64,000 nt of DNA from Limisphaerales bacterium (GCA_044223735.1 JBGALR010000026.1:21841-85840); one strand, 5' to 3'; shown: positions 7,461 to 31,881, counted from the first letter of the stretch. The notes: generated by a model not told the origin, from the sequence alone. A program made the numbers and translations.

Positions 7461-7711
7461 CTAGCGATTGCGCGACGCACGCGACCTCCGCGTCGATGCC
7501 CCGCAAAGAAGCATGATCAATGGCGACTTTCCCAGCTTTGAATTCCACGTTTTTTTACAATGCCTTCACTTCGACAGCTCGGGCCAACGTAGCGAGAGGA
7601 GAGTTTTGTTACAACTTTGGATGGCTTTATCCTATGCGGCCCGCGCCACGGCGTGCCAGATTGATAGCGTCGATCAAATTCCATTATGAACAACGCGGGC
7701 GGCGTTTACCC

Positions 7712-12210: not shown

Positions 12211-13014
12211 ATGAAGATCGGCACCACCACGTTTGGATTTCGCTACTCATTCCTCGACCGCGCCAACAGCATGAAACTTGCCGAGGTCATCCGGCAGGTG
12301 CGCGCGGCCGGCGTCGAACGGTTGCAAGTTTGCGAGAACGTCCATCCGCTGGAGATTTCGAAAAGCGACTGGGACGACGCCCGCCGTTGTGCCGCCGACC
12401 TCGGAGTTGAACTCCAGCTCGGCTGCAAAACCCTGCGGCCCGAAACCGTGGAAAACTACATGCGCCTCGCGGAGGAACTCCAGTGCAACCAGTTGCGCAT
12501 CGTGATGGAGGAACATGCCGAGCACGCCACGCGGGAAAACGCCGTGCCGCTCCTCGAAAACATCGTTCCCAAAATGCGCGCGGCGGGGATGCGACTGGCC
12601 ATCGAAAATCATTTCGACATTCCGTCCGCGCTGCTTGTCGAACTCGCCGCCGAGTACGCCGCGAAGGACGTCGGCTTCTGCGTGGACACCGCCAACTCCC
12701 TGCGCAGTTTCGAGCCCACTCATGAAGTCTTCGACCTCCTGGGCAGCCGCGCCTTTTGTTATCACCTCAAGGATTTTCGCGTCATCGGCGGCATGATCAG
12801 CTTCTCCGTGGTTGGCACGCCGCTGGGCGAAGGCCAGCTCGATCTCGATGCCTGCCTCAAATACATCTTTGACAACACGCCGGACTGCCCCCTGTTCGTC
12901 GAGACGTGGACACCCGGCGAAAATGACCGCGCCGGTGACGCCGCGCGCGAACTGGACTGGCTGCAACGTTCCGTCACAAACCTGCGCGGCGCACTCAAGA
13001 AATATGTATCTTGA
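12211..13014 (+). CDS. Sugar phosphate isomerase/epimerase (xylose isomerase-like TIM barrel)
   Basis: 267-aa ORF with the family pattern LRIVMEEH, RLAIENH, CVDTANS and YHLKD. Confidence 0.75.
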   Translation: MKIGTTTFGFRYSFLDRANSMKLAEVIRQVRAAGVERLQVCENVHPLEISKSDWDDARRCAADLGVELQLGCKTLRPETVENYMRLAEELQCNQLRIVMEEHAEHATRENAVPLLENIVPKMRAAGMRLAIENHFDIPSALLVELAAEYAAKDVGFCVDTANSLRSFEPTHEVFDLLGSRAFCYHLKDFRVIGGMISFSVVGTPLGEGQLDLDACLKYIFDNTPDCPLFVETWTPGENDRAGDAARELDWLQRSVTNLRGALKKYVS

Positions 13015-16200: not shown

Positions 16201-19200
16201 TTGAAATTGAACTCCGTCATTGCGCAAGTGGGCGGCGCATTGCTGCTGCTTTTCCTTTCCAATGCAACTCTTCCCGCCGCGCCGATCCGCGTGGATCTGG
16301 CCGGCTTCGCCCGCATCGTGCGTTATGCGGGAAATTCTCCCGAGACGTTCGCCGTCCAGGACCTCAAACGCGAGGCCGATGGCTGGCGCGCTTACCGGGG
16401 CGAAAACGGGCAATACCTGCTGGGTCTCGAATGGGACGAGCCGCGCGACATCGCGGAAGTCAGCGTCGAGTTCGCGACGGACTTTCCCCACTATGACGGC
16501 ATCGGCGTGGAATACGCGCAACAATTCTGGCCGAGCCTGGAAACCGGCGGCTGGGCGCCCATCGACGATCCATTCCACGGAAAATGGACGACGGCGAAAA
16601 CACAGAACGCCTGGCGCGGCGAACGAAATATCACGCTCATCTTTGGTCAACTCAACGAGGAACCGGGGCGTGAAGGTTTGCATGGCCTGCGGTTCCGACG
16701 GACTTATCGGCTCCGTTTGACGTTCGGCACGAACGAGCCGCCGGCAATTCGCGCCGTGCATGCTTATGCCGTCCGCCCCACCGTCGAAGGCCGCTTTGCG
16801 GTGCGCGCAGGCAAAGGCAGCGTCGTTCCCCCACCCTGGCGCGTGCAGGTTGTCAACGGCGCTTTGCTCGACGAACGCGGTTTGCCGTGCAGCGAATTGA
16901 TTTTGGTGTCCGCAACCAATCTGCAAGTCGCTTATTTGCAAAGTGACGTGGAAACTCAAACACGCACAGTGGTCACTGTACGATGCGAGAATGATCCGCT
17001 GCGCGGTTTTTCGTTTCTTCCACAGGAAGCAGAAAGTCGCGGTGAACTGAAAATTCCCGCCCTTGGCGTGGACGTCGCGGCATTGGACGCGACGGGAGCG
17101 CACGCTCCCTTGCAGCCCGGTCAGGCCATTCTGGATCGTGTCGAACGGGAGCCGCAGCAGACCTTCGCCCGGGCGCGACGGGAAATCCCGGCGTTGCGCA
17201 AAAGCGGGCAGCGTGATCGTCCGATGTATCTCCCGCTTGGTCCGCCGGACGCGCGCCAGGAAATTGCGGTGAGTTATGACGGCAGCTTTCTCCTCCACAA
17301 TTCCTCGTTGAAATCCACCGCATCGGATTCGGCGCGCATGCAGTGGCCCGGGCCGGCCTGGTATCTGCGATTGCACGGTGGCGAATCGTCGTTTGAACAA
17401 TCCGCCGAGGGCGCAGTGCGCCAGCGCTTGCTCGATGGCTATCTGCCCATCGTCATCAGCTCCTGGGAAAGCGGCGGCATTCAATACGAGGAAACCTGTG
17501 TCGCGACTTTCCTGAATGGCGAACCCGCCGCGATCCAAGGCGATGAAACCGTGGTGTTGCTCGCGCGGTTGACCATGTCAAACCCGGGGAGCAATTCCGC
17601 CACCGCCACGGTACAATTGCAAACCGAGCCGGGCGAGCGATTGCAACTCACCAACAACGACGTTTACGCCACCGGTTCCGCCGGTGAAACGGCCACGAAC
17701 TATTCCGCGCCGCGATATCGTTTCTGGCTTAGTCATGAACCGACCGCCCGCAACGTTCCTTCTCCCGGCGCAACACTGGTCACTTCCCAATGGTCCGTCG
17801 CGCCCGGAGAATCACGCCGGTTGGAATTGCGCGTCCCCTTCGTGACCCTCGACACCGCCGCGGAACGCGGACAAATCGCCGCGCTCGACTTTGATCGCGT
17901 GCTTGTCGCCGAATCCAATCGCTGGCAGAAAATCATCGCCCAACAGGCGGTCATCGAAGTGCCGGACCGGTTGCTCTCCGATTTTTACAAAGCCAGCCTC
18001 GCGCACATTTTGATCACCGGCGATCGTGATCCGCTGAGCGGCTACGGCCTTCTTTCCGCCGGCACTTTTCTTTACGGCCTGTGCCTCAACGAAGCCTGTC
18101 ATCAAATCCGGTCGCTCGAAATGCGCGGCCTCCATCAGGTCGCGCAAAAATATCTCGACGCCATCATCGCCGGACAGTCCCGCATGACCTTGGGCGGACG
18201 ATTTGGCGACATGGCGGGCGCATTGCGTGGTGTCCGCCTCGGTGATCCCGCCAAAGAGCAGTTGCAAGGCGGACCTTACAATCTCGATCACGGCTTCGCG
18301 TTGTGGATATTGAACGAACATTACCGCTTCACCCGCGATCAGGATTGGTTGCGGCAAAACGCCCCGGCGCTGATCGCTGCCTGTGATTTTGTGACGCGTG
18401 AACGCTCGCAAGGTTCGGGCACCAACACATTGTCGTCCAGCGACGCGCGCTGGGGCAACGGTCTCCTGCCGCCGGGGCAACTGGAAGATCCGCCGGATTG
18501 GTTGTGGTGGCTCTCGGTGAATGCCTACGCCGCGCGCGGCATGCTCGCGACAGCGGAATCACTGAGGGAAATCAATCATCCCGACGCCGGTCGCATCGCC
18601 CGCGATGCCAGCGCGTATCTCCAGGCGGTGCGCGATTCCTCGCGTGAAGCGATGTTGCGCGCGCCGGTCGTGCGATTGCGGGACGGCACTTACATTCCAT
18701 TTCAACCGACGCGAAGCCGGTTGCGGGGACGCGACGTCGGCTGGGTGCGGGACGGTCTTTACGGTCCCGTGCATCTCATCGATTGCGGCATCTATCCGGA
18801 TAATTCGCCGGAGGCCGGATGGATTCTCCGGGATACCGAGGACAACGTTTTCATCGGCGAGGAACGCGGACGCAAGCTCACGGACTTCGAAAGCCAGTGG
18901 TTCAGTTGGGGCGGCATCACCATTCAGGCCAATCTGCTGCCGAATCCGCTGGTGTACATCAGGCGCGACCAGCCCAAGGCGGCGCTCCGCGCGTTCTACA
19001 ACGTGCTCGCGACGTTTGTTTACGAGGACGTCCGTGCGTTTTGCGAACATCCCGTGGACGCGCTTGGCCTGGGCGAGGGACCGTTTTATAAAACGCCGGA
19101 TGAATCCGCCTTCGTCGTCTGGCTGCGAAGTTTGTTAATTTGCGAAAACGGGTCCGACCTGGAATTGTTGCCGGCAGTGCCGCAGGAGTGGCTCGAAGAT

Positions 19201-19470
19201 GGGAAGGAAATCCGCCTGCGCGGCGCGGCGACGTGGTTTGGGCCGGTCGATCTGCACGTCGCGTGCAAGGATGGCCGCATGGATATTAACGTCTCTGGAG
19301 CCAATCGAAATGCGCCCGGCGCGATTCGTCTGCACCTTCGGCATCCTGAATCCATCAGCCGCATTTATGTGAACGGCCAGTCCGTCTCCAGGGCGGAAAT
19401 GAAGGCCGGCGTAGTATTACTCGACGGAAAATCCGGGAAGATTTCCCCGGTGCCAGCTCACAAGGAGTGA
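16201..19470 (+). CDS. Large secreted protein, possibly a six-hairpin (alpha/alpha toroid) glycoside hydrolase; family not recognised
   Basis: 1089-aa ORF beginning at TTG 16201 (alternative GTG 16228) with a signal-like N-terminus. The central region (YNLDHGFALWILNEHYRFTRDQDWLRQNAPALIAACDFV) resembles toroid glycosidases. The functional call is weak. Confidence 0.5.
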   Translation: MKLNSVIAQVGGALLLLFLSNATLPAAPIRVDLAGFARIVRYAGNSPETFAVQDLKREADGWRAYRGENGQYLLGLEWDEPRDIAEVSVEFATDFPHYDGIGVEYAQQFWPSLETGGWAPIDDPFHGKWTTAKTQNAWRGERNITLIFGQLNEEPGREGLHGLRFRRTYRLRLTFGTNEPPAIRAVHAYAVRPTVEGRFAVRAGKGSVVPPPWRVQVVNGALLDERGLPCSELILVSATNLQVAYLQSDVETQTRTVVTVRCENDPLRGFSFLPQEAESRGELKIPALGVDVAALDATGAHAPLQPGQAILDRVEREPQQTFARARREIPALRKSGQRDRPMYLPLGPPDARQEIAVSYDGSFLLHNSSLKSTASDSARMQWPGPAWYLRLHGGESSFEQSAEGAVRQRLLDGYLPIVISSWESGGIQYEETCVATFLNGEPAAIQGDETVVLLARLTMSNPGSNSATATVQLQTEPGERLQLTNNDVYATGSAGETATNYSAPRYRFWLSHEPTARNVPSPGATLVTSQWSVAPGESRRLELRVPFVTLDTAAERGQIAALDFDRVLVAESNRWQKIIAQQAVIEVPDRLLSDFYKASLAHILITGDRDPLSGYGLLSAGTFLYGLCLNEACHQIRSLEMRGLHQVAQKYLDAIIAGQSRMTLGGRFGDMAGALRGVRLGDPAKEQLQGGPYNLDHGFALWILNEHYRFTRDQDWLRQNAPALIAACDFVTRERSQGSGTNTLSSSDARWGNGLLPPGQLEDPPDWLWWLSVNAYAARGMLATAESLREINHPDAGRIARDASAYLQAVRDSSREAMLRAPVVRLRDGTYIPFQPTRSRLRGRDVGWVRDGLYGPVHLIDCGIYPDNSPEAGWILRDTEDNVFIGEERGRKLTDFESQWFSWGGITIQANLLPNPLVYIRRDQPKAALRAFYNVLATFVYEDVRAFCEHPVDALGLGEGPFYKTPDESAFVVWLRSLLICENGSDLELLPAVPQEWLEDGKEIRLRGAATWFGPVDLHVACKDGRMDINVSGANRNAPGAIRLHLRHPESISRIYVNGQSVSRAEMKAGVVLLDGKSGKISPVPAHKE

Positions 19471-20480
19471 GTAAGACCGCCGGCGGTGCTGGCCGCGGCG
19501 GCGTGGCTGCGACGCCATTCGCGCGGTGATTTTTCAAACGCCTGCCGGAAGCGGCGGTCGAAATAGCTCTGGTCCGAGAAGCCGCATTTCACCGCGATTT
19601 CGGCGATGGTCATGTCGGTCTCCCGGAGCATGCGCAACGCGTTCATGATGCGTACGCGAGTGACGTGCGCGACGAATGTCATGCCCGAAACCTTCTTGAA
19701 CACCTTCATGAATTGCGCCTGGCTCATGTGCGCCAGTTGCGTCGCCTGCGCGATGGTGATGCGTTCGGCATAATTTTGCCGCACGTAATCGAACACGCGC
19801 GCGAGCCGCTCGGCCTGCTGGCGATGCTGCAGATATTCGGAACGCAATACTTCCGCCGCCTGAAACTGGCGCGTCAGCAAATGCAAAATCTCCAGGAAGC
19901 TCGCCTTGCAGCCGGACTGCGAATAAACCACTTCCTTCGAGTGAAAATAACGCCGCATCAATTCGGCGAGCGCCACATGGACCGGCGCGGCCAGCGCGTC
20001 GGTCGCGCGCAACACATGCGGGAAGCCCTCGCGCTTGGCGTAAAACGGAATCAGAAACGCGTAGTCACACGAGGGCGAGCCGGCGCCATAGACGAACTCC
20101 GGCAGAAAACTGATCGCAATCAACCGCGTTTTGAAGCCGGGAAAATCAACGAGGTTGTGCAGCTTCAGATTGTCCACCACCAGCATGTCCCCGGGCGCGA
20201 GCTCGACATTCTGTTCACCCATGCACATGCGCGCCGGCGCGTCGAGCGGGATGGCCACTTCGAGACGCTCATGCCAGTTCGAGATCGGGGTGTAATGCTT
20301 GGAGGAAAACTGAAAGAGGCTGATGCGAAACGGAAATTCCTTGTCCAGGTGCAGGTCGTAGTGGCCCCGATTATCCAGCAGGCGCGCGATATCGTGCGGC
20401 TCGAACTTCAAGCCGCGACACGAGGCAAGCAGGGCGTTAAATGCCTTTTGATGATCGTTCGGCTTGCTTTTCAGAGTCAT
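19458..20480 (-). CDS. AraC-family transcriptional regulator
   Basis: Cupin-like N-terminus plus a C-terminal double HTH (ITIAQATQLAHMSQAQFMKVFKK...IAEIAVKCGFSDQSYFDRRFRQAFEKSPREWR). Confidence 0.9.
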   Translation of the reverse strand: MTLKSKPNDHQKAFNALLASCRGLKFEPHDIARLLDNRGHYDLHLDKEFPFRISLFQFSSKHYTPISNWHERLEVAIPLDAPARMCMGEQNVELAPGDMLVVDNLKLHNLVDFPGFKTRLIAISFLPEFVYGAGSPSCDYAFLIPFYAKREGFPHVLRATDALAAPVHVALAELMRRYFHSKEVVYSQSGCKASFLEILHLLTRQFQAAEVLRSEYLQHRQQAERLARVFDYVRQNYAERITIAQATQLAHMSQAQFMKVFKKVSGMTFVAHVTRVRIMNALRMLRETDMTIAEIAVKCGFSDQSYFDRRFRQAFEKSPREWRRSHAAAASTAGGLTHSL

Positions 20481-20548: not shown

Positions 20549-21979
20549 TTAAATGGCTCCCTCCGCCAGCCGCACCAGGAAATCGTCGGACCCCACCTGG
20601 CCGCCTTTGCAAATCAACTGGCTCCCGTCGATGGCGGCGCCCGGCGCATGTACCTTGCACCACGGAGCGCCGGTGGCAGCCGGCGCGAGATATTCCAGCG
20701 CCTGGATGCCCAGCGCACGACCAGCTTGAGTCGAGGTATCGCCACCGCAAATGACTGCGCGGCGCGCACCGGATTTCTCCAACGCCAGCGCCATGATTTT
20801 TCCCAGCGAATCCCCCAGGCTCGCCCGGGCGGCCGCCATTTTGGCGGCGGCGCTACGGCCCGCACCATTCCGGGCCGCGCGTTCGAAATCGTGCCGACGG
20901 GTGTCGGCGGCTCCGCGCGCCGTATGAAAAATGACATGCCGTCCCGCGCCCAATGCCAGCGAAGCCTTCGTCACCGCCGCCTGTATGCCCGCGTCGGCTC
21001 GCGCTGTTTGGGCCAGCGCATGGGTATCGCATGCGACTTCGGCAAAGCCCGCCTTCAACGCGCGCGCGATTTGCCGGTCAGTCACCGGCGAACAACTGCC
21101 GGAGATGATCACCATCTGCTTGTTTTTCGCGAGCGGCCCGGCCACAGACGAAGGCGGCCGGATCGCTCCGCAGGCGCGCCAGTACGCGGTCAGAGCCCGT
21201 CCCACACCGCTTGAACCGGCGCAGAATAATTGCTTTCCGTCGGTCTGAAGGCTCGAAATCAAACGTCCGACAAAGGGCAGATCATCCGCGTCCAGCGTAT
21301 CAAAAAGGACTACCGGCGGCAGCTTGGCGACGGCCATCGCGTTCAGGCGGCGTTCGAGCGTTTCAAGATTCTGGAGCGCAACCCGTTTCAGGGCGGTCTG
21401 ACACGCCTTGAGCGCGAGAATATCGACGAGCTCCATCGGCAGCCGTGTCTGGCGGGAAAGATGCACCCGCAAGTCGGCTTCGTTCATCGGCGTCACCGGA
21501 TGATGACTCATGGGGTGACGATCCAGGCGAAAAACGGGCGAATCACCCGAGCGCGCAAAAAGATTTCCGAAGACCACATGGCGTCCAAACGCGGGGAAAC
21601 CCACGACCAGCGGCGTCAATCGTTTGCCGAAAACCTCGCGTCCGATTTCAATCGCCCGGCCGATGGATCCGACCGTGGGCGACGAATCGAACGTCGAACA
21701 GGTCTTGTAATGAAGGATCGCCGCGCCGCTCCGTTTGAGTGCTTTGAATGCCGGCGGCAATTCACGGTTCATTTCGGCCACCGACATGACACGGGACCCT
21801 CCCACAATGCCAAAGGCGCGCAGGCCCGGAAATTGTGCGAGTTGCGCCGGGGTCGGCGGATCAAGAAATAGAACCGTTTTCAATCCCGCCTGCGCGAGGG
21901 ATTCGAGCGCGTCGGTGGAACCGGTGAAATCGTCGGCGTAGTACGCCAGCAACAAGCCCTTTGAGTTGGCGCGCTTCAT
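20549..21979 (-). CDS. Four-carbon acid-sugar kinase family protein (DUF1537; OtnK/DtnK/OiaK-like)
   Basis: The N-terminal YYADDFTGSTDALESLAQAG is typical of DUF1537. Its ATG (21977-21979) directly abuts the stop of the RuBisCO-like gene. Confidence 0.85.
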   Translation of the reverse strand: MKRANSKGLLLAYYADDFTGSTDALESLAQAGLKTVLFLDPPTPAQLAQFPGLRAFGIVGGSRVMSVAEMNRELPPAFKALKRSGAAILHYKTCSTFDSSPTVGSIGRAIEIGREVFGKRLTPLVVGFPAFGRHVVFGNLFARSGDSPVFRLDRHPMSHHPVTPMNEADLRVHLSRQTRLPMELVDILALKACQTALKRVALQNLETLERRLNAMAVAKLPPVVLFDTLDADDLPFVGRLISSLQTDGKQLFCAGSSGVGRALTAYWRACGAIRPPSSVAGPLAKNKQMVIISGSCSPVTDRQIARALKAGFAEVACDTHALAQTARADAGIQAAVTKASLALGAGRHVIFHTARGAADTRRHDFERAARNGAGRSAAAKMAAARASLGDSLGKIMALALEKSGARRAVICGGDTSTQAGRALGIQALEYLAPAATGAPWCKVHAPGAAIDGSQLICKGGQVGSDDFLVRLAEGAI

Positions 21980-23245
21980 TCAGGAATTTCCAAATTTTGC
22001 CAGCGTGGCGCGCAATTCCGGATGCTCCAATGCGTAGGTGCCGAGCGGTATGCCCGCGATCGCCGCCTCCCACGCCTGTTGCAGGCTCAGCACGCCCGCA
22101 GCCGGCCCGAGCGGATGCGCCAGGATTCCGCCGCCCGCCAGATAAAGTAAATCGGTGGTTTGCGTGGCGCGCAACGTGTCCGGCGCCTGCCCGCCCCACT
22201 GCCCGGAACTCACCACCGGCAGCGCGGTATCGTCGGCGCGGAACATCGGTGTCATGCAGGCCTTGATGCTTCGTATCACCGAATCGTCCGGCTCCCAGAA
22301 TTTATTCGCGAGGCCGTTCACATGCAGTTGATCCGCGCCCACGAGCCGCCAGAGCTTTTGCCACGCGACATAATCGATACCCAGAAACGGGTGCCGCGTG
22401 TAAAGCCCCCAGCCGTTGCGATGGCCATGAATCGGCAAATCACAACGGCGACGAAGCTCGGCAAACGCGGAAAATCCCACGCTATGAATGCTCGCCATCA
22501 CGCAGGTGCCGCCCGCGCGCATCACCAGTTCCTGGTTCCGCAACATCCGCTCGTAGTCGTCGGTGATGTTGAAGGCGAACATGACTTTTCGCCCGGTGCG
22601 ATCCGCGACTTCGTTGATGACCCGCATGACTTCCGTCACGCGATCCTTGAACGGACAATACGGCGAGTTCGCCTGCAATTCGTCGTCCTTGATGAAATCA
22701 ATCCCCGCCTCGGCGAGCGTCTTCACCAGCGCGGCCGTCTGCGCGGCGCTGAGTCCCACGCTCGGCTTGATGATCGTGCCGATCAACGGGCGCTTTTCCA
22801 CACCCGCAAGTTTTCGCGTTCCCGCGATGCCGAATTTCGGCCCGCCATAATGTTGAGCGAACCCGGCCGGGAATTGCACGTCCAGCAGCTTGATGCCGGA
22901 AAGCTGGCTTAGCTCAAAAAGATTGCCGCACAACGTCGCGAGCAACGTGGGCAGGTTGGGACCGATGTTGTCATAGGGAAATTCCACCGTCACCCTGGCG
23001 CGGCGATAGGCCGGCTTGCTCCCGGCGTTGCGCGGCGGACGGCAGCCGGGCAGCGACGGTTGCTCAACGGCGTCCAATGGCTCGATGGCAACGACCTGCG
23101 CCCGCGACCGCGCTTTCAACTCATCTGTCTCGCCCGGCACCGCCACGAACGTGCCGGAGGATTGTTCCCCGGCGATCATTTCCGCCGCAAACTCCACCGG
23201 GTGGGGCGTTTCAATCAGGTAGCTGGCAATTATGGGATCTTTCAT
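21980..23245 (-). CDS. RuBisCO large-subunit-like protein (form IV RLP)
   Basis: GTIIKPSVGL carries K-P-S where carboxylases have K-P-K. DFIKDDE retains the carbamylated-Lys/Mg site. IHGHRNGWG and LHVNG are also present. The 421-aa length fits an RLP. Confidence 0.85.
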   Translation of the reverse strand: MKDPIIASYLIETPHPVEFAAEMIAGEQSSGTFVAVPGETDELKARSRAQVVAIEPLDAVEQPSLPGCRPPRNAGSKPAYRRARVTVEFPYDNIGPNLPTLLATLCGNLFELSQLSGIKLLDVQFPAGFAQHYGGPKFGIAGTRKLAGVEKRPLIGTIIKPSVGLSAAQTAALVKTLAEAGIDFIKDDELQANSPYCPFKDRVTEVMRVINEVADRTGRKVMFAFNITDDYERMLRNQELVMRAGGTCVMASIHSVGFSAFAELRRRCDLPIHGHRNGWGLYTRHPFLGIDYVAWQKLWRLVGADQLHVNGLANKFWEPDDSVIRSIKACMTPMFRADDTALPVVSSGQWGGQAPDTLRATQTTDLLYLAGGGILAHPLGPAAGVLSLQQAWEAAIAGIPLGTYALEHPELRATLAKFGNS

Positions 23246-23550
23246 CTATCACTCGTCGCCGGACAACCCCGGAGTGGTTCGTCACCCAGGCGCTGACACC
23301 TTGCATCGGCCACAACTGTACCGACGCGCACCAAGCAGAGCCTAGCAGGAAATAACAGAAGATTAGGACGAAATTTGTACGGCGGCCGCCCTGGTTGCCG
23401 AAAGAAAAATTGTCCAAACTTTTCACGGTGATTCTGCTATGCCATCGGCAGGAGATGTTCATATCGTTGGGCCGGTGGCGACACCGGACCGGGCGGGCTG
23501 CGGCGTTTCGCGGGACCACCGGCGCTGCGGGCGCGGCATCGCATTGGGTC

Positions 23551-24405
23551 ATGAGCATTGATAAGACATCCTCGGTTTTTATGAATTTCAGCGGTTTGGT
23601 TGAATTTACCCCGGCATTCCAGCCGCGGCCTCAGATTTCCCACGTGCTGTTCGACTTCGACGGCACGCTCTCCCTGATTCGCGAAGGCTGGCCGGCCGTT
23701 ATGGTCCCCATGTTCACGGAAATGCTGCCGTCCGCGCCCGGCGAAACCGAGGAGGCCCGCGCCCAGCTTTGCCTCGACGACATCATGCGGCTCAACGGCA
23801 AGCAGACCATCTATCAAATGATCCAGCTTGCCGACCGCATTAAGCAACGCGGCGGCACACCGCAGGAACCGCTTTGGTACAAGAACGAATACCTGCGCCG
23901 CCTGGAACTGCGCATCAGCCACCGTGCCCACGCGCTGCGCAGCGGCGCGACGCAGCCGGACGAACTCCTGGTGTTTGGCGCCCGTAAATTGCTGGAATCC
24001 CTGCGCAAACGCGGCCTGCAACTCTATCTGGCCAGCGGAACCGATGAGCGTTTTGTGAAAGCCGAGGCACAGTTGCTGGGGGTCACGGAGTTTTTCGGCC
24101 GCCATATCTACGGCGCGCAGGATGACTACAAGAATTTCTCCAAGAAAATGGTCATCGAACGGCTCCTGCGCGAGAACCAGATTCCCGGCGACCGCCTGCT
24201 GTCGTTTGGTGACGGCTACGTCGAAATCCAAAACACCAAGGAGGCCGGCGGCCTCGCGGTGGCGGTGGCGAGCGACGAAGCGAACAACGGCTCGGGCCGC
24301 ATGGATCAGTGGAAGCGCGAACGCCTCCTCGGCGTGGGAGCGGACGTCGTGATCCCGGATTTTCGTGACACGGAGCCGCTCCTGGAGCGAATCTTTGCCG
24401 CATGA
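23551..24405 (+). CDS. HAD-superfamily hydrolase/phosphatase
   Basis: HAD motif I is LFDFDGTLS. LASGTDE and FGDGYVE are also present. The start is ATG 23551 (MSIDK), with upstream alternatives possible. Confidence 0.8.
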   Translation: MSIDKTSSVFMNFSGLVEFTPAFQPRPQISHVLFDFDGTLSLIREGWPAVMVPMFTEMLPSAPGETEEARAQLCLDDIMRLNGKQTIYQMIQLADRIKQRGGTPQEPLWYKNEYLRRLELRISHRAHALRSGATQPDELLVFGARKLLESLRKRGLQLYLASGTDERFVKAEAQLLGVTEFFGRHIYGAQDDYKNFSKKMVIERLLRENQIPGDRLLSFGDGYVEIQNTKEAGGLAVAVASDEANNGSGRMDQWKRERLLGVGADVVIPDFRDTEPLLERIFAA

Positions 24406-25460
24406 CCCCCGCCCGCTTCGCCGCCCTCACGGAGAAATATGCCGGCCTGCGGGTCGCGGTGGTCGGCGATTTTTGCCTTGATCGTTACCTCGAAATCGAC
24501 CCTTCGCGCGCGGAGACATCCATTGAAACGGGGCTGCCTGTTTACAACGTCACCAAGGTCCGCGCGCAACCGGGCGGCGCCGGCACCATTACGAACAACC
24601 TGGCCGCGCTCGGCATCAAAACGATTTACGCGGTCGGCTTTGCCGGCCAGGACGGCGAGGGCTTTGAATTGCGGCGGGCGCTCAGCGACACTCCCGGCAT
24701 AAAACTCGATCATTTCATCCAGACCCGCCACCGCCAGACCTTCTGCTATTGCAAGCCGCTGGTGCTCACCCCGGGCGAACCGCCCAGGGAACTCAACCGC
24801 CTCGACCAGAAAAATTGGACGCCCACCACCGCCTCCCTCGAACGCAATTTGAGCGACGCCATGCTTTCGCTTTCCGGCGAAGTGGACGCTTTCATTCTCC
24901 TAAGCCAGGTGGATGTCCCGGACACGGGAGTTTTGACGCAAAACGTCCTGAAGACTTTTAAAGCGGGACTGCCAAAAAAAGACGCGCCGCTGGTGCTGGC
25001 GGACAGCCGGCGGGGACTGCGGGGATTTCCGGCGTTCATTTTTAAAATGAATGCGCAAGAACTCCAGGCTTACAACGGCAAACCGAACGCCGCCGACATT
25101 GAGGACATCGGTTCCGCCGCCGCGCGCGTCGCACTGAAGAATGGCCATCCGGTTTTTGTCACCCTGGCCGAACGCGGCATGCTGGCGGCGTCGCCAAAAG
25201 GACGCGTGGATCATCTCGGGGCTTTTCCCATCAAAGGCCCCATCGACGTGGTCGGCGCGGGCGATGCGGTGACCGCAAATCTTACGGCTGGACTGGCGAG
25301 CGGGGCGACGTTGCGTGAGGCATTGGAACTGGCGAATGCCGCCGGCTCCGTGGTCATCCATCAGCTCGGCACCACCGGCACCGCTTCGGGCGCTCAACTT
25401 CGCGAACGAATGTTTCCGAAAACAGCTACTCCGCCTCCAGCGTCCGGTCGGGCCGCGTAA
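24402..25460 (+). CDS. PfkB-family carbohydrate kinase (ribokinase/RfaE-domain-I-like)
   Basis: Contains VVGDFCLDRY, QPGGAGTITNNLAALG and the C-terminal VVGAGDAVTANL. It overlaps the HAD gene stop as ATGA. Confidence 0.85.
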   Translation: MTPARFAALTEKYAGLRVAVVGDFCLDRYLEIDPSRAETSIETGLPVYNVTKVRAQPGGAGTITNNLAALGIKTIYAVGFAGQDGEGFELRRALSDTPGIKLDHFIQTRHRQTFCYCKPLVLTPGEPPRELNRLDQKNWTPTTASLERNLSDAMLSLSGEVDAFILLSQVDVPDTGVLTQNVLKTFKAGLPKKDAPLVLADSRRGLRGFPAFIFKMNAQELQAYNGKPNAADIEDIGSAAARVALKNGHPVFVTLAERGMLAASPKGRVDHLGAFPIKGPIDVVGAGDAVTANLTAGLASGATLREALELANAAGSVVIHQLGTTGTASGAQLRERMFPKTATPPPASGRAA

Positions 25461-26721
25461 GCAGCCACGCGCCGACCGCGAGGAGATTCAACACCGCCGC
25501 CGTGTAAAAGAACGGCGAGTAACTTCCGGTCCAGCTCAACAAATAAGGAAACGCCAGCGCGGTAATGAACGAACCGACATTACCCGCCATGTTCATCGTG
25601 CCGGAAACCGTGCCGGAGTTTTTCCGCCCGATATCGATGCACACCGACCATGAGGGCGAGATGGTCATATCCGCGCCAAACACGGCCACCGTAAAGCAGA
25701 GGATCGCCCCCAGCGCGGTCTCCATGTGAACACTGATCAGCAGGCCGACCACCGCGAGGCAAAAGCCGATGATTGCCGGAATTTTTCGCGACGCGATGGG
25801 ATGTCCCCGACGGTAGATCCAATCGATCAGCGCGCCGGCCGTCCAATTCCCGAAAGCGCCGGCCAGCGGCGGCAGCGCGGCATACAAACCCGTCTGCACC
25901 GCGGTCAGTCCGTAGCGGTCTTTCACATAAGAAAACAGCCAGGACAGCGCGAAGAAAAACGTAAAATTGGAGGCGAAGTATTGCGTCATCAGCAACCAGA
26001 CATTTTTGGAGCCGAGCAACCGCACCGCCGTCAGGCTGGGAACTTTTTGATCCTCCGCCGCCGAGCTTTCGCGGTGACGCAGGATCAACTCTTTTTCCTC
26101 CTGCGAAATTCGCGGATGCCGCTCCGGGTCATCGCGAAACCAGAGAAACCAGAACACGGCCCACGCCACTCCCACACCGCCCAGCACGCCGAAACTGAGA
26201 CGCCAGCCGAGCTTCTCCACCATCAACGCCACCACCGGCAGCGTGAACGCCGCGCCAACGCGCGCGCCGGAAAACATCACTCCCTGCACCAGCCCGCGCT
26301 CCGTCTTGGGAATCCACGAAAACACCGCCCGGGCGCACGCGGGAAACGCTCCCGCTTCACCGGCGCCAAAGAGGAAACGGTAAATCATCATGGAAAGGAA
26401 GCCCGTGGCCACGCCGGTCAGCGCGGTAAAGACCGACCACGCGGTCACGACCGTGCTGAGAATCAATCGCGGACCGTGACGATCCGCCAGCAATCCGGTC
26501 GGCACCTGAAAGAGCGCGTAACCCAGCGCGAAAATGGAGAGCACCCAGCCCATCTGAGTGCCGGTCAAACCCAGATCAGCGGAAATATGATCCTTGGAGG
26601 CCGAGATGCAGACGCGGTCCACGTATAGCAACATGGAAAGCAGAAACATCCCGAACACCAGCCAGTATCTGGTTGGAATGCGGAATCGGGAGGGCCGCGA
26701 AACGACGTTGGAGTCGATCAC
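25426..26721 (-). CDS. MFS transporter (anionic sugar / ACS-type by resemblance)
   Basis: 431 aa with about 12 hydrophobic segments and the loop motif GLLADRHGPR. Confidence 0.8.
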   Translation of the reverse strand: MIDSNVVSRPSRFRIPTRYWLVFGMFLLSMLLYVDRVCISASKDHISADLGLTGTQMGWVLSIFALGYALFQVPTGLLADRHGPRLILSTVVTAWSVFTALTGVATGFLSMMIYRFLFGAGEAGAFPACARAVFSWIPKTERGLVQGVMFSGARVGAAFTLPVVALMVEKLGWRLSFGVLGGVGVAWAVFWFLWFRDDPERHPRISQEEKELILRHRESSAAEDQKVPSLTAVRLLGSKNVWLLMTQYFASNFTFFFALSWLFSYVKDRYGLTAVQTGLYAALPPLAGAFGNWTAGALIDWIYRRGHPIASRKIPAIIGFCLAVVGLLISVHMETALGAILCFTVAVFGADMTISPSWSVCIDIGRKNSGTVSGTMNMAGNVGSFITALAFPYLLSWTGSYSPFFYTAAVLNLLAVGAWLLTRPDRTLEAE

Positions 26722-26798
26722 GAGGTCAGGATACGAAACGGATTATTGGGTGACGACCAAAAAGCGCAGGCGGACGTGTTCGCATGCGCCAACGTCGC

Positions 26799-27530
26799 TC
26801 AACAGGCGCCTGCGGGAACCAGCGCCGGACGCGCCGCCTTGCCCTGCCGCCCGTCGCGTTCAGTAGCGACGCGATCGAGCAAACGCCGGGCTTCGGCGAG
26901 GCCGGTCAGACCCACCTGCAGAACCGGCACGCGCGTCCGGTGTTGAATTTGCGCGAGGCTGATCTGGCCGAGGACGAGCACGTCCACTTCCTTCGCGAGC
27001 TTGTCCATTTCGCGATGCACCAACTCGTTGTGGCGGTCAATCTCGCCCTTTTGAAGATGTTCAAAGGCCGCTTCGCTGACGGCGGTCTTGATTTCGATGG
27101 TGGTGCCGGCGTCGCGCGCGGCGCGATTCAACTGGCGGATCGTCGCCGCCGGACTCGTCGGCACCGTGGCGATGATGCCCATGCGGCGGCCCTGGCGCAC
27201 GGCATCGCGCGCCATCGGTTCATCGATGTTGAAAACCGGGATGGACGAATAATAACGCGCCGCGGCGATGGCCTCGCCGACGGTGGTGCAGGAGCACATG
27301 GCGACATCCGCCCCCATGGATTCCGCCGCCATCACATAAAACTGGATGCGTTTGAGCACCGAACGCGTCGCGCCGTTGTTCTCCAGCGATTCCGCCAGCA
27401 GGGAATCGTCCATGATATTGAACACGCGAACGTCGGGATTCTGCTTCAGCCACGGCGTGACGAATGGGTTGATGACCGACTGATCGTACCATTTGACCGT
27501 GTGGATTAACGCAAGGGTTTTGGGCTTCAT
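26799..27530 (-). CDS. Asp/Glu/hydantoin-racemase-like family protein
   Basis: 243 aa. The pattern LIHTV...ADVAMCSCTTVG...GIIATVPTS...VLVLGQISL resembles the two-lobed racemase/arylmalonate-decarboxylase fold. The call rests on recall only. Confidence 0.5.
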   Translation of the reverse strand: MKPKTLALIHTVKWYDQSVINPFVTPWLKQNPDVRVFNIMDDSLLAESLENNGATRSVLKRIQFYVMAAESMGADVAMCSCTTVGEAIAAARYYSSIPVFNIDEPMARDAVRQGRRMGIIATVPTSPAATIRQLNRAARDAGTTIEIKTAVSEAAFEHLQKGEIDRHNELVHREMDKLAKEVDVLVLGQISLAQIQHRTRVPVLQVGLTGLAEARRLLDRVATERDGRQGKAARPALVPAGAC

Positions 27531-27536
27531 ATAAAT

Positions 27537-28379
27537 TTACTTGGGGAGCGAAACTTCACGCGCTACTAACAATGGCTTAAGTCCGATGATTTCGCGAGCA
27601 CGATCAGCGCGGGCGACCTTGCGGCCGGCCTTCTCGGCCTCGCGCACGGCATCTTCGACGAGCTCGATATTATTCCGGGCCCGCTTGCCGTTGCTCATAA
27701 ATGGGCTATCTTCATAACCGACGCGCACATGGCCGCCCAGATCCATCACGCGACGCAAGTCGGCCGCCCCCTTTTGATGGTGGCGCACGCAGAACCAGAC
27801 GGCCTTCGCCGGCAGATGATCCACAAATAGATCCAGATAACGGTCCGTGTAGGGCAGCGCCGCCGGCACATCGAAAACAAATTCAAACACATACGGCGGC
27901 GAAAGTTCGCCGTCATCGATCAACCGCTGATAATTGATCATGTGCGAGAGATCGAAGATCGGCATCGTCGGCACAATCCGATTATCCCGCAGCTTGCGGG
28001 TATAGAAAATGATGTCCTCGTAACGATTCTGATAAACCCCATCAAACATGTTGATCGAGCCGAGATTGAGCGAGCCGAGTTCAACTTCCGGCACCGTGAA
28101 GGTGGCACAGCGCTGGTCGAGGGTGTGTTCCGGCGCGCCGCCGGTGGAACCCTCTATAATAATGGAGCTGCTTTCGCGCACCTGCCGCATTTGTTGCGCG
28201 AACAAAGTCGGATCCACGCTTTGCAAATGGTTTTCGTCACGGGCATGCAGATGGGCAATGGCCGCACCGGCGGCATCGCAGCCAAGAATGTCCTCCACCA
28301 CATTTAAAGTCCCCGGAAATTTCTCCTCCTGCTTCTCGCCGGGCACCGGCGCCACAGCGATCATGATATCACTATTCAT
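27537..28379 (-). CDS. Beta-keto acid cleavage enzyme family protein (BKACE / DUF849, 3-keto-5-aminohexanoate cleavage enzyme-like)
   Basis: 280 aa with IMIAVAPVPG, AIAHLHARDE and IIIEGSTGG, typical of DUF849 TIM-barrel enzymes. Confidence 0.75.
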   Translation of the reverse strand: MNSDIMIAVAPVPGEKQEEKFPGTLNVVEDILGCDAAGAAIAHLHARDENHLQSVDPTLFAQQMRQVRESSSIIIEGSTGGAPEHTLDQRCATFTVPEVELGSLNLGSINMFDGVYQNRYEDIIFYTRKLRDNRIVPTMPIFDLSHMINYQRLIDDGELSPPYVFEFVFDVPAALPYTDRYLDLFVDHLPAKAVWFCVRHHQKGAADLRRVMDLGGHVRVGYEDSPFMSNGKRARNNIELVEDAVREAEKAGRKVARADRAREIIGLKPLLVAREVSLPK

Positions 28380-28561
28380 TAGAAAAAAAACTAACTCACG
28401 TCCTTAAATGCGACTAGCAGAAATCCATGAAAAACTTGGACGATATTCCAAAACCTTCCGCGCAAGTCGCGGAAATATCGAGGGTTAGCAAAAAGAGTTT
28501 TATACAAGTTTTTAATTAGTTTGTGCTATGCGACTTTTTGAAAGTCAACTACGGTGAAAGC

Positions 28562-29479
<918 letters not shown>

Positions 29480-29547
29480 TTGATAGTGTTTTTACGGGCA
29501 GCGTTCCAATTCCTACCTGACCTAAAACCAACCACGGAAAGTACTAA

Positions 29548-31881
29548 ATGAAAACCAAATCCCCCCAAGGACGGACGACCGGCATTACCCGGCGCCTTTG
29601 CTCCCTCGTACCAATGTGTGCCGCTGCCTTGTTGTTTTCCGGCGGCGCTTTAACCGCGGCCGTGCCGGCCGATCCCACTGTGGAAATGCGCTTTTCCAAC
29701 GGTCCCGGCTCGGGCAACGGTCTCACCACCCCGAACGACGGTTACCTCTCGGGTCTCGGAACTTTCTCCGATCCGGCAGGCACCAATACCTTTCCCGCCT
29801 TCACCACCAACGTTCCCGCCGGTCCTTATGTCCCCGGCTCGAACGCCTACGCTCTGGATTTGGGCAACTTTGTCCCGGGCGCGGAAGGCCGGGCCGTTGA
29901 TCTCGTGACCACCGCCAACCCTCCCGGCGACGGCACGCTCGGCGCGCTCCCGCAAGTCACCGTGGCCGCGTGGGTCAACGCGCGGACCTTCAGCACCCGC
30001 AATGCGATTGCCTATGCGCTCGCTTCGCAGGACGGCCTTGGTTTCAGTTTCGCCGCCAGTTCGGTCGGCAAACTGATGCTGGGCATCAATGAAGACGCCA
30101 GCGGGCTCTTTACCTCCGTCTATAGCCTCCCGACCGATGGCAACGTGGGCAGCAACAACTGGGTTTTCGTGGCTGCCACGTATAATCCCAATCTATCCTC
30201 CAACCAGCTTAGCTACTATATCGGCCGTCCCAACAAACTCGCCTACCTCGATACGGCCCTGACCTATACCGGCGGCGATATCACCACGTCGAACGTCGAT
30301 GTGACGGGCCCACTGACGGTCGGCAATTACGGCAGTGTCGATGCAAACCGCACCTCGCCCAGCTCCGCGGGCAATCCTCTTTTCCGGGGCGTCATCGACG
30401 AAGTGAAGGTTTACACGAACGCTTTGACGCTCGACCAAATCCAACAGGTTCAAATCAATTCGGCGGTGACGCCCGTGGCGGCCAGCATCATTTCCGGCCC
30501 GGCCAACCAAACCGCCGCTGAAGCCCAAAATGCGACCTTCACGGTGGACGCGACTGGCTCCGGCACGGTGACTTATCAGTGGAAAACCAATGGCGTCGAT
30601 ATCGTCGGTGCCACCAACTCCAGCGTGACCCTCACGAACGTGACCCTCGCGCAAATTGGCCTGCAGGTTCGCGTCGGCGTCAGTAACACGGTCGGTGGCG
30701 TGCTGAGCCCCAATGCCAGTCTCTCCGTCCTGCCGGCGAATCCGCAGTTGATGTATCTCTCCTACGTGGAAGGCAACGACAAGACCACCAATTCCACCAT
30801 CACGGCGGCGAACCAGAACATCACCACCACCAACGTCGGGAACGTCCAGGGCAAAGGTTATTTCCTCCAGAAGAACTCGACCAGCGGCAACTTCATCGGG
30901 GCGGGCACATATCCCGTATTCAGCACCAATGTCCCGGTCGGTCCTTATGCTCCCGCCTTTCCTTACGACCAGTTCGCGCTCAACATGGGCGACATCCGCT
31001 ACACGAACTTCCCCGCCGGCGGGGTCGGCAGCCAGGGCGGACGCGCCGTGGATTACACCAATTCCATCGGCAGCCCCTTGAACTCGCTTGGCAAAATGAG
31101 TGCGCTCACCATCTGCGTCTGGGTAAACGCGGGTAACCTCACGTTCCGCGGCAATAACGGCGGCATGGGACCGCAAATCATCTTCGCGGAAGACGAACCC
31201 GGCCGGAACGGCTTCTCCCTCTCGCACAAGGCCGACTGGTCCGTGCAATTGAATGTCAACGAATGGCCCGGCGGCGCGGGCAATCGCAGCTTCGGCCTCC
31301 TGCCGGTGGTGCAAGGTCCGGATGGCAACGCCATCTTCCCCTCAAGCAACTGGGTCTTTGTGGCGGTGACCTATGACGGCACCCTGACCTCGCAAAACCT
31401 GAATTACTACTTCGGCAGCGGCACCGCCCTCGCCACCCTCGATGCCACCTCCCCTCAGGACTACAACAAGGGCATCATCAATTACGCCACCACCGCTCCC
31501 GTGACCGTGGGTAACCTGAACTCGGTGACCACTCTCTCGGGCCGCACCATCAATGGCGACAACGCCGCCTTCTTCCGCGGACTCATCGACGAGGTGCATA
31601 TCTTCAGCCGCGTGCTGACGCTGGCGGAAATCCAGCAGGTGCAGGTGGCACCCGCCATGCCTTCGTATCTCGCCGTCACCCCGCAAACAGGCGCCGCCAA
31701 ATTGTCCTGGGACCAGGGCGCACAACCCCTCTTCCCCACACTCCAGCTTCAGGCCAGCCCGAGCATCACCGCCGGCGGCTGGACGAACGTGACCGCCGCC
31801 ACCAATGTGACCGGCAGCATCCGCAGCCTGACGGTGCCGACGACCAGCGGGCCGCTGTATTATCGCCTGCTGAGCAAGTAA
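29548..31881 (+). CDS. Secreted protein with two LamG (concanavalin-like lectin) domains and Ig-like repeats
   Basis: Signal peptide present. The two domain endings are FRGVIDEVKVYTNALTLDQIQQVQ and FFRGLIDEVHIFSRVLTLAEIQQVQ. An Ig-like TVTYQWKTNGV segment lies between them, and the C-terminal module ends LYYRLLSK. Confidence 0.75.
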   Translation: MKTKSPQGRTTGITRRLCSLVPMCAAALLFSGGALTAAVPADPTVEMRFSNGPGSGNGLTTPNDGYLSGLGTFSDPAGTNTFPAFTTNVPAGPYVPGSNAYALDLGNFVPGAEGRAVDLVTTANPPGDGTLGALPQVTVAAWVNARTFSTRNAIAYALASQDGLGFSFAASSVGKLMLGINEDASGLFTSVYSLPTDGNVGSNNWVFVAATYNPNLSSNQLSYYIGRPNKLAYLDTALTYTGGDITTSNVDVTGPLTVGNYGSVDANRTSPSSAGNPLFRGVIDEVKVYTNALTLDQIQQVQINSAVTPVAASIISGPANQTAAEAQNATFTVDATGSGTVTYQWKTNGVDIVGATNSSVTLTNVTLAQIGLQVRVGVSNTVGGVLSPNASLSVLPANPQLMYLSYVEGNDKTTNSTITAANQNITTTNVGNVQGKGYFLQKNSTSGNFIGAGTYPVFSTNVPVGPYAPAFPYDQFALNMGDIRYTNFPAGGVGSQGGRAVDYTNSIGSPLNSLGKMSALTICVWVNAGNLTFRGNNGGMGPQIIFAEDEPGRNGFSLSHKADWSVQLNVNEWPGGAGNRSFGLLPVVQGPDGNAIFPSSNWVFVAVTYDGTLTSQNLNYYFGSGTALATLDATSPQDYNKGIINYATTAPVTVGNLNSVTTLSGRTINGDNAAFFRGLIDEVHIFSRVLTLAEIQQVQVAPAMPSYLAVTPQTGAAKLSWDQGAQPLFPTLQLQASPSITAGGWTNVTAATNVTGSIRSLTVPTTSGPLYYRLLSK

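Follow-up and report, generated by a model that had tools for sequence, protein, structure and literature searches.

A 64,000-nucleotide stretch of a Limisphaerales bacterium genome (GCA_044223735.1 JBGALR010000026.1:21841-85840; hereafter the window, with positions counted from its first letter) carries, side by side, genes for a RuBisCO-like protein (RLP) and a DUF1537-family acid-sugar kinase, and close to them three further genes that are found together in no described D-apiose route. On balance, we favor reading this part of the window as two functional units: the RLP-kinase pair with an AraC-family regulator, and a feeder made up of a protein of the beta-keto-acid cleavage enzyme (BKACE) family, a one-cysteine racemase-fold enzyme (here called Rac), and an MFS transporter. 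The pair very likely completes an oxidative D-apiose route otherwise encoded on a separate contig, C5, of the same genome. The feeder probably works without an oxidoreductase, importing an acidic sugar and passing a product of it on to the kinase and RLP of the pair. As the substrate of the feeder we tentatively put forward L-aceric acid (3-C-carboxy-5-deoxy-L-xylose), a sugar of the pectin rhamnogalacturonan II (RG-II). The reactions that we assign are deduced from sequence.

The RLP (21980-23245, minus strand; Pfam RuBisCO_large) and the kinase (20549-21979, minus strand; Pfam SBD_N and NBD_C) meet at a TGAATG junction, in which the RLP stop TGA (21982-21980) abuts the kinase ATG (21979-21977), and translation of the two is predicted to be coupled. 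This junction had been pointed out in an earlier, sequence-only reading of the window, as had the residue pattern of the RLP, and both are borne out. The motif DFIKDDE supplies K186, D188, and E189 (KDDE at 186-189), and K160-P-S162 stands in place of K-P-K. Equivalents of RuBisCO K175, K201, D203, E204, H294, R295, H327, and K334 are retained, and K177 is replaced by Ser162. With the carbamate/Mg site kept and one catalytic residue substituted, the protein is by its residues a form IV RLP.

The same reading had taken the pair to be of the type that acts on apiose-derived acids, and here too it agrees with what we find. The best NCBIfam model for the kinase is OiaK (NF042436; 428 bits over the full length, compared to 173 bits for OtnK), and that for the RLP is OiaX (NF042437; 516 bits), both below the 700-bit equivalog cut-off. 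Such scores are not diagnostic, because related RLPs of all three clades reach 450-531 bits on the OiaX model and related kinases 384-585 bits on OiaK, those from undoubted ApnO clusters among them (430-585 bits). We therefore rejected the OiaX and OiaK scores as a means of telling the clades apart, and the 700-bit OiaK cut-off is narrower than the functional group. Besides its two-domain DUF1537 architecture, the kinase is tied by its genomic setting to ApnO, ApsD, and ApnL, as seen in the clusters of its orthologs and in partner genes on C5.

The oxidative D-apiose/D-apionate pathways consist of ApsD, ApnL, ApnO, and OiaK, followed by the RLPs OiaX or OiaT, as outlined in the part of PMC13753588 that summarizes Carter et al. 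2018. Verrucomicrobiota metagenomes are rich in the closest homologs of the window RLP (67-75% identity), and the kinase is 58-63% identical to those of loci L081 and L082. On long contigs from sister Verrucomicrobiota, RLP orthologs (71-75% identity) lie inside complete apiose clusters, with a GH140 apiosidase, a Gfo/Idh/MocA dehydrogenase, the RLP, the kinase, a PGDH_C protein of the ApnO type, a PF01261 protein, a sugar ABC transporter, and an apionate lactonase. No dehydrogenase, lactonase, or ApnO gene is present in the window. The sequence-only reading had noted this absence; however, such genes are encoded elsewhere in the genome, on C5 (17134-26342, also L103:5120-14358), as an apiose cluster in canonical order from which exactly the RLP-kinase pair is absent. 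Encoded there are a Gfo/Idh/MocA dehydrogenase (77% identical to that of L081 in a tblastn search), PGDH_C/ApnO (86%), a PF01261 protein, a binding protein (81%), two permeases, an ATPase, and a homolog of the lactonase (63%). Only 74 bp separate the dehydrogenase from PGDH_C/ApnO, at the point where relatives hold the RLP-kinase pair. By tblastn, the whole genome yields a single RLP and a single DUF1537 kinase, those of the window, which are thus its only OiaX/OiaT-type and OiaK-type genes. With one of each gene and a cluster that lacks only these two, the pair has come apart from the rest of its cluster. The kinase would then phosphorylate 3-oxo-isoapionate, and the RLP would either decarboxylate the 4-phosphate, as OiaX does, or transcarboxylate and hydrolyze it in the manner of OiaT. 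Housekeeping GTPase and GlmS genes border the C5 cluster. The window has a PF01261 (xylose-isomerase-like TIM barrel) gene of its own, at 12211-13014, 28% identical to that of the C5 cluster.

What sets the window apart is the second unit. The sequence-only reading had listed as partners of the pair a BKACE, a racemase-like protein, an MFS transporter of the anionic-sugar type, a HAD phosphatase, and a PfkB kinase. The first three are conserved alongside such pairs, in three arrangements and two phyla, but the compact operons described below have neither HAD nor PfkB. Close homologs of Rac (70-84% identity) are common. BKACE adjoins Rac in all eight contigs examined for them, and in every readable context BKACE lies directly upstream and MFS directly downstream of Rac. 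Three contigs from close relatives, including L109, carry BKACE, Rac, MFS, RLP, kinase, and AraC in this order, all co-directional, with gaps down to 15 nucleotides. The order RLP-kinase-AraC also recurs in L082, L109, and one further co-directional contig. In L083, BKACE-Rac-MFS is followed by convergent PfkB and HAD genes, as in the window. Finally, L085 and L086, as well as the Phycisphaerae contigs L087 and L088, hold a compact operon, RLP-kinase-BKACE-Rac-MFS, facing a regulator of the XylR/AraC type.

The BKACE, Rac, and MFS proteins of the compact operons share 69-79% identity with those of the window, compared to only 56% for the RLP and 47% for the kinase, and the RLP groups with a different clade from that of the window. 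MFS is 67-69% identical to the transporters of L083, L085, and L087. The Phycisphaerae genome, assembled from a metagenome, has a single RLP, and no ApnO homolog was found in it. Thus, the module adjoins an RLP-kinase pair in three arrangements and two gene orders, with RLPs of two clades, in two phyla. That these three genes travel with a pair of either clade is hard to explain unless they need such a pair. Among 401 Verrucomicrobiota genomes sampled, a BKACE match comparable to the window's own was seen only in the genome of the window itself (G000). No close BKACE was found in the plasmid collection, and no Rac was seen in the contexts of the nearest DUF849 relatives without the glutamate discussed below, on contigs that are short.

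The BKACE-like protein (27537-28379, minus strand) belongs to the DUF849 family by a comfortable margin (PF05853, 195 bits compared to a cut-off of 24.8). In a confident alignment with Kce (PDB 2Y7D), the protein retains the H-x-H, E/D, STGG, Arg, and Asp motifs, and its HLH motif and the Glu of YED align with the Kce zinc ligands His46, His48, and Glu230. However, the position of Kce Glu143 (chain residue 149) is taken by Pro140, and it is Pro or Ala in all orthologs of the protein. Glu is found there in 107 of 131 full-length family representatives, with the exceptions clustering among the nearest relatives of the window protein. We take Kce Glu143 to be the general base that removes a proton from the substrate at C2. 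Because its equivalent is missing, the beta-keto-acid cleavage with acetyl-CoA that the sequence-only reading had envisioned is unlikely, and the protein is a noncanonical member of its family. The DUF849 family already includes groups without BKACE activity, one of which decarboxylates, and the relatives of the BKACE-like proteins include cis-epoxysuccinate hydrolase.

Rac (26799-27530, minus strand; PF01177, 57 bits) is likewise only in part what its family name suggests. Its AlphaFold2 model (pLDDT 91.7) has the racemase fold, as the earlier reading implied, with the nearest solved structures at 12-18% identity, but just one of the two catalytic cysteines is present. Cys81 aligns with MurI Cys70, so that the first catalytic motif is kept, and the second cysteine is replaced by Gln189, which is invariant in all 35 aligned members; the Gln is shared by the BKACE-linked type, the type linked to an SBF-family transporter, and Paraburkholderia homologs. 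With the second cysteine replaced, a two-base racemase is unlikely, and a single acid/base residue would suit a suprafacial proton shift, and hence an isomerase, better than racemization. We presume Rac to be a cofactor-free isomerase. The C-terminal 22 or so residues (26799-26870) form a low-confidence, Arg/Pro-rich tail that ends in Cys; it occurs in some close orthologs and not in 223-residue forms. A further member with one Cys and Gln, encoded on a Paraburkholderia largidicola megaplasmid (L108, AP028202.1:1675777-1680132), follows a sugar ABC transporter and has no RLP, DUF1537 kinase, or BKACE nearby; therefore, the one-cysteine subfamily is broader than the RLP cassettes.

How might these proteins work together? 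MFS (25426-26721, minus strand; MFS_1 domain) has the anion:cation symporter family TIGR00893, that of the D-galactonate transporter, as its best match (266 bits), and the anionic-sugar type proposed for it earlier thus fits. It would import the acidic sugar, which Rac, with its single catalytic cysteine, and the zinc barrel without Glu143 may convert, with no redox step, to a 3-oxo acid bearing a free CH2OH; this would then pass through the same kinase and RLP. L-Aceric acid suits such a scheme. Its structure is OHC-CHOH-C(OH)(COO-)-CHOH-CH3, and its aldose-ketose isomer is HOCH2-CO-C(OH)(CHOH-CH3)-COO-. Since 3-oxo-isoapionate is HOCH2-CO-C(OH)(CH2OH)-COO-, the aceric ketose is its methyl homolog, reached with neither oxidation nor rearrangement of the carbon skeleton. 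That would explain a cofactor-free isomerase in place of ApnO. Because C2 is quaternary in both 3-oxo-isoapionate and the aceric ketose, there is no proton for a DUF849 enzyme to abstract, and loss of Glu143 fits either a zinc-bound enolate formed by C-C cleavage (retro-aldol) or isomerization. The zinc barrel could thus isomerize L-aceric acid from aldose to ketose or, alternatively, carry out a retro-aldol reaction to acetaldehyde and 3-oxo-tetronate.

In its fullest form, the proposal is that RLP, kinase, BKACE-like protein, Rac, and MFS make up a complete, redox-free, and so far undescribed catabolic pathway for the L-aceric acid of RG-II, with an apiose-type kinase and RLP serving, in this lineage, both branched pectin sugars; we regard this as possible and rather less than probable. 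Rac would be the aldose-ketose isomerase, and the base-less DUF849 barrel a retro-aldolase or isomerase acting on a quaternary beta-keto acid. Phosphorylation of the aceric-derived ketose at its CH2OH would fall to the kinase, and the RLP would end the route, either by decarboxylation to a 5-deoxypentulose 1-phosphate or by transcarboxylation and hydrolysis to 3-phosphoglycerate and lactate.

The link to aceric acid comes from a survey of 90 loci around related RLPs. The RLP-kinase pair has an ApnO gene nearby in 31 of these and a Rac gene in 43, with both in only one, and in most of the loci it is ApnO or Rac that directly follows the kinase. The company of the two types differs. Loci with ApnO hold an apionate lactonase (16 of the 31), a dehydrogenase (14), and in one case a GH127 gene, whereas those with Rac hold an SBF-family carboxylate transporter (30 of the 43), GH127 (16), GH141 (6), and a SASA esterase (6), and never an apionate lactonase. 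The GH127 protein of one locus, L019, scores 797 bits against PDB 5mqo, compared to 389 for the next GH127. We take 5MQO to be BT1003, the GH127 enzyme that acts as the aceric acid hydrolase of RG-II. In the 401 Verrucomicrobiota genomes, BT1003-type GH127 genes (called at E <= 1e-120) are present in 16 of 19 that are Rac positive, mostly within 25 kb, compared to 9 of 382 that are Rac negative, a contrast that is overstated because the genomes are related. In a quick maximum-likelihood tree, the Rac-associated RLP clade is well supported (SH-aLRT 99). The searchable literature contains no catabolic route for aceric acid, and no paper that links it to RLPs or DUF1537.

Several observations weigh against aceric acid and keep our preference for it tentative. 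In the same tree, the window RLP falls not in the Rac-associated clade but in an ApnO-associated one from Verrucomicrobiota and Pirellulales, so that double duty would require either substrate promiscuity or identical intermediates. All of the kinases are OiaK-like rather than OtnK-like, which does not favor a 3-oxo-tetronate intermediate. The genome of the window has no BT1003-type GH127; its best GH127, on contig C55, resembles 6ex6 (678 bits, compared to 327 to 5mqo). Close relatives combine the module with GH140 apiosidases and not with GH127. A few families dominate the co-occurrence counts, which lack phylogenetic independence. The identity of 5MQO with BT1003 and the role of Kce Glu143 are reportedly due to Ndeh 2017 and Bellinzoni 2011, respectively.

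One residue of the RLP seemed at first sight to bear on its affiliation. Residue 306 (about 22328-22330), the equivalent of RuBisCO His325, is Gln in the window, as in 23 of 120 close homologs; the other ApnO-associated RLPs all have His, whereas 92% of those associated with Rac have Gln, so that the residue separates the clades. We rejected Gln306 as a convergent marker of Rac association, because RLPs with Gln306 occur in canonical apiose clusters and the RLP of one co-directional BKACE-Rac-MFS contig has His; inside the clade of the window RLP, the residue does not follow the gene neighborhood.

The same facts can be read in other ways. The module might instead feed an acid derived from apiose, for example 2-oxo-apionate made extracytoplasmically by a PQQ/flavin dehydrogenase and imported by MFS, in the way that other bacteria take up 2-ketogluconate. 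The zinc barrel, Rac, or both would then carry out an alpha-ketol rearrangement to 3-oxo-isoapionate, replacing ApnO, and kinase and RLP would see their usual substrate. The lack of a BT1003-type GH127 in the window's genome and of a redox enzyme in the compact operon would both be expected, and the genomic company is suggestive: the module runs in the same direction as an apiose-clade RLP-kinase pair and directly follows two GH140 apiosidase genes in L109, an apiosidase-like gene lies near the module of another co-directional contig, and a PQQ_2 protein is found inside one of the orthologous apiose clusters. However, the RLPs of the compact operons belong to the Rac-associated clade, in which the other members adjoin BT1003-type GH127, and one-cysteine Rac occurs without the zinc barrel in the SBF/GH127 cassettes; moreover, 2-oxo-apionate is not known as a natural metabolite. 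We consider an apiose-derived acid unlikely, though deserving of some weight.

More radically, BKACE, Rac, and MFS could be a catabolic unit for some unrelated small acid, such as another beta-keto acid or a dicarboxylic acid, placed beside the pair only by shuffling within polysaccharide-utilization regions. The two enzyme families do also contain cis-epoxysuccinate hydrolase and maleate isomerase, one-cysteine Rac stands next to a sugar ABC transporter with neither RLP nor kinase on Paraburkholderia megaplasmids, and in L083 no RLP lies within 10 kb of the module. Chance shuffling is nonetheless improbable as an account of an adjacency that holds for two RLP clades, two gene orders, and two phyla, with gaps as short as 15 nucleotides, and in which BKACE stays next to Rac in all eight contigs. 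It is harder still to credit the new D-apiose route suggested by the sequence-only reading, in which a true BKACE splits a 3-keto acid sugar with acetyl-CoA and racemase, PfkB, and HAD replace the dehydrogenase, lactonase, and oxidoisomerase. The Pfam score, the retained zinc ligands, and the conservation of BKACE as a neighbor of the pair would all be accounted for. Against this stand Pro or Ala at the Glu143 position in every ortholog where 107 of 131 representatives have Glu, the quaternary C2 of 3-oxo-isoapionate, which would offer no proton to abstract, the existence of dehydrogenase, ApnO, and lactonase on C5, and the absence of HAD and PfkB from the compact operons; we think such a route very unlikely. 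An oxidoreductase-free feeder thus remains our preferred reading of the module, with aceric acid as its candidate substrate.

The remaining genes of the region are less easily tied to either unit. Gene calls were made from a listing of open reading frames (ORFs) together with Pfam matches, and eight genes were confirmed. The AraC-family regulator that the sequence-only reading placed over the whole cluster (19458-20480, minus strand; HTH_18 and HTH_AraC domains) is indeed present, but as the third gene of the RLP-kinase unit rather than as an established regulator spanning the pectinases. A terminator-like hairpin lies near its end, at 19450-19433. The HAD-family hydrolase (plus strand; Hydrolase and HAD_2 domains) has an ORF open from 23395. 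It is 79% identical to the 283-residue HAD of L083, and because the alignment to this ortholog begins at residue 64, the start is most likely the ATG at 23551, giving a protein of 284 residues (23551-24405) and setting the divergent intergenic region between RLP and HAD at 23246-23550. The HAD frame shares 4 nucleotides with that of the PfkB-family kinase (24402-25460, plus strand; PfkB domain), the overlap reported earlier; PfkB weakly resembles rfaE domain I (147 bits on the rfaE_dom_I model, cut-off 345). Its 3′ end and that of the convergent MFS gene overlap by 35 nucleotides (25426-25460). Since HAD and PfkB are absent from both the compact and the co-directional operons, they are probably not core genes and may be a lineage-specific insertion.

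A scan for promoters and terminators found no sigma-70-like site, 23246-23550 included, and no terminators above chance. A 20-nucleotide stretch upstream of HAD, ATTGTCCAAACTTTTCACGG (23409-23428), matches 28425-28444 upstream of BKACE at 16 of 20 positions in the same orientation relative to the genes; since shuffled sequence does as well, the match is no more than a lead toward a shared operator or promoter. Convergent with AraC is a 1,089-residue ORF (16201-19470) for which neither Pfam (E <= 0.01) nor a comparison with PDB sequences gave a match; it has a weak paralog (25% identity) on contig C53. Divergent from BKACE, 28523-31881 encodes a prepilin-type N-methyl protein and a LamG-domain exoprotein, in a synteny kept at L083:4645-8719, so that conservation of the neighborhood extends beyond the catabolic genes. 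As for the GH28 and PL1 pectinases said to sit beside the cluster, the sole GH28 gene of the window is at 7520-9715, some 11 kb and five genes off, and no PL1 gene was found in the window, PF00544 matches in the genome being confined to contig C17.

This locus suggests that an apiose-type kinase-RLP pair can be detached from its oxidative ApnO feeder and joined to a different one that needs no oxidoreductase. What is new here is an operon type that combines an RLP with a BKACE-family protein, joined to an apiose-type RLP-kinase pair; the searchable literature contains no paper describing an RLP-kinase pair with a BKACE-like, racemase-fold, and MFS combination, in keeping with what the sequence-only reading had supposed. 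Mapping of what RuBisCO-like proteins, DUF849 barrels, and racemase-fold enzymes can do is still under way, and the four small soluble enzymes offer a direct route to new reactions in two families that here lack their canonical catalytic residues. The assignment to aceric acid, if correct, would fill a gap in our picture of how bacteria use the rare sugars of pectin.

It is worth setting the window against the systems it most resembles. With the oxidative apiose pathways it shares the OiaK and OiaX best models, orthologs inside apiose clusters, and partner genes on C5; it differs in scores of 428 and 516 bits where the models ask for 700, in a pair detached from its cluster, and in the added module. 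The L-threonate and D-erythronate pathways, with an OtnK kinase and an OtnC decarboxylase reportedly worked out by Zhang et al. in 2016, are alike in logic, a DUF1537 kinase phosphorylating a 3-oxo acid ahead of a decarboxylation, but the window kinase scores far lower with OtnK than with OiaK, and the candidate decarboxylating enzyme is an RLP and not a class II aldolase-fold protein. The BKACE-like protein has in common with Kce the TIM-barrel family, a zinc site of H-x-H plus Glu, and the motifs STGG, Arg, and Asp, at about 30% identity; Pro140 takes the place of Glu143, and the context is sugar-acid catabolism in place of lysine fermentation. Similarly, Rac shares its predicted fold and first cysteine motif with the Asp/Glu/hydantoin racemase superfamily (MurI, arylmalonate decarboxylase, and maleate isomerase), from which it is set apart by Gln for the second cysteine and by its 12-18% identity to any solved member. 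A further comparison is with the RLP-kinase-Rac-SBF cassette beside BT1003-type GH127, itself not described in the searchable literature. The window's genome lacks that GH127, and the window adds the BKACE-like enzyme, has MFS where the cassette has SBF, and draws its RLP-kinase pair from the ApnO-associated clade; both nevertheless have a Rac of the one-cysteine subfamily, a carboxylate transporter, a kinase like OiaK, and an RLP like OiaX.

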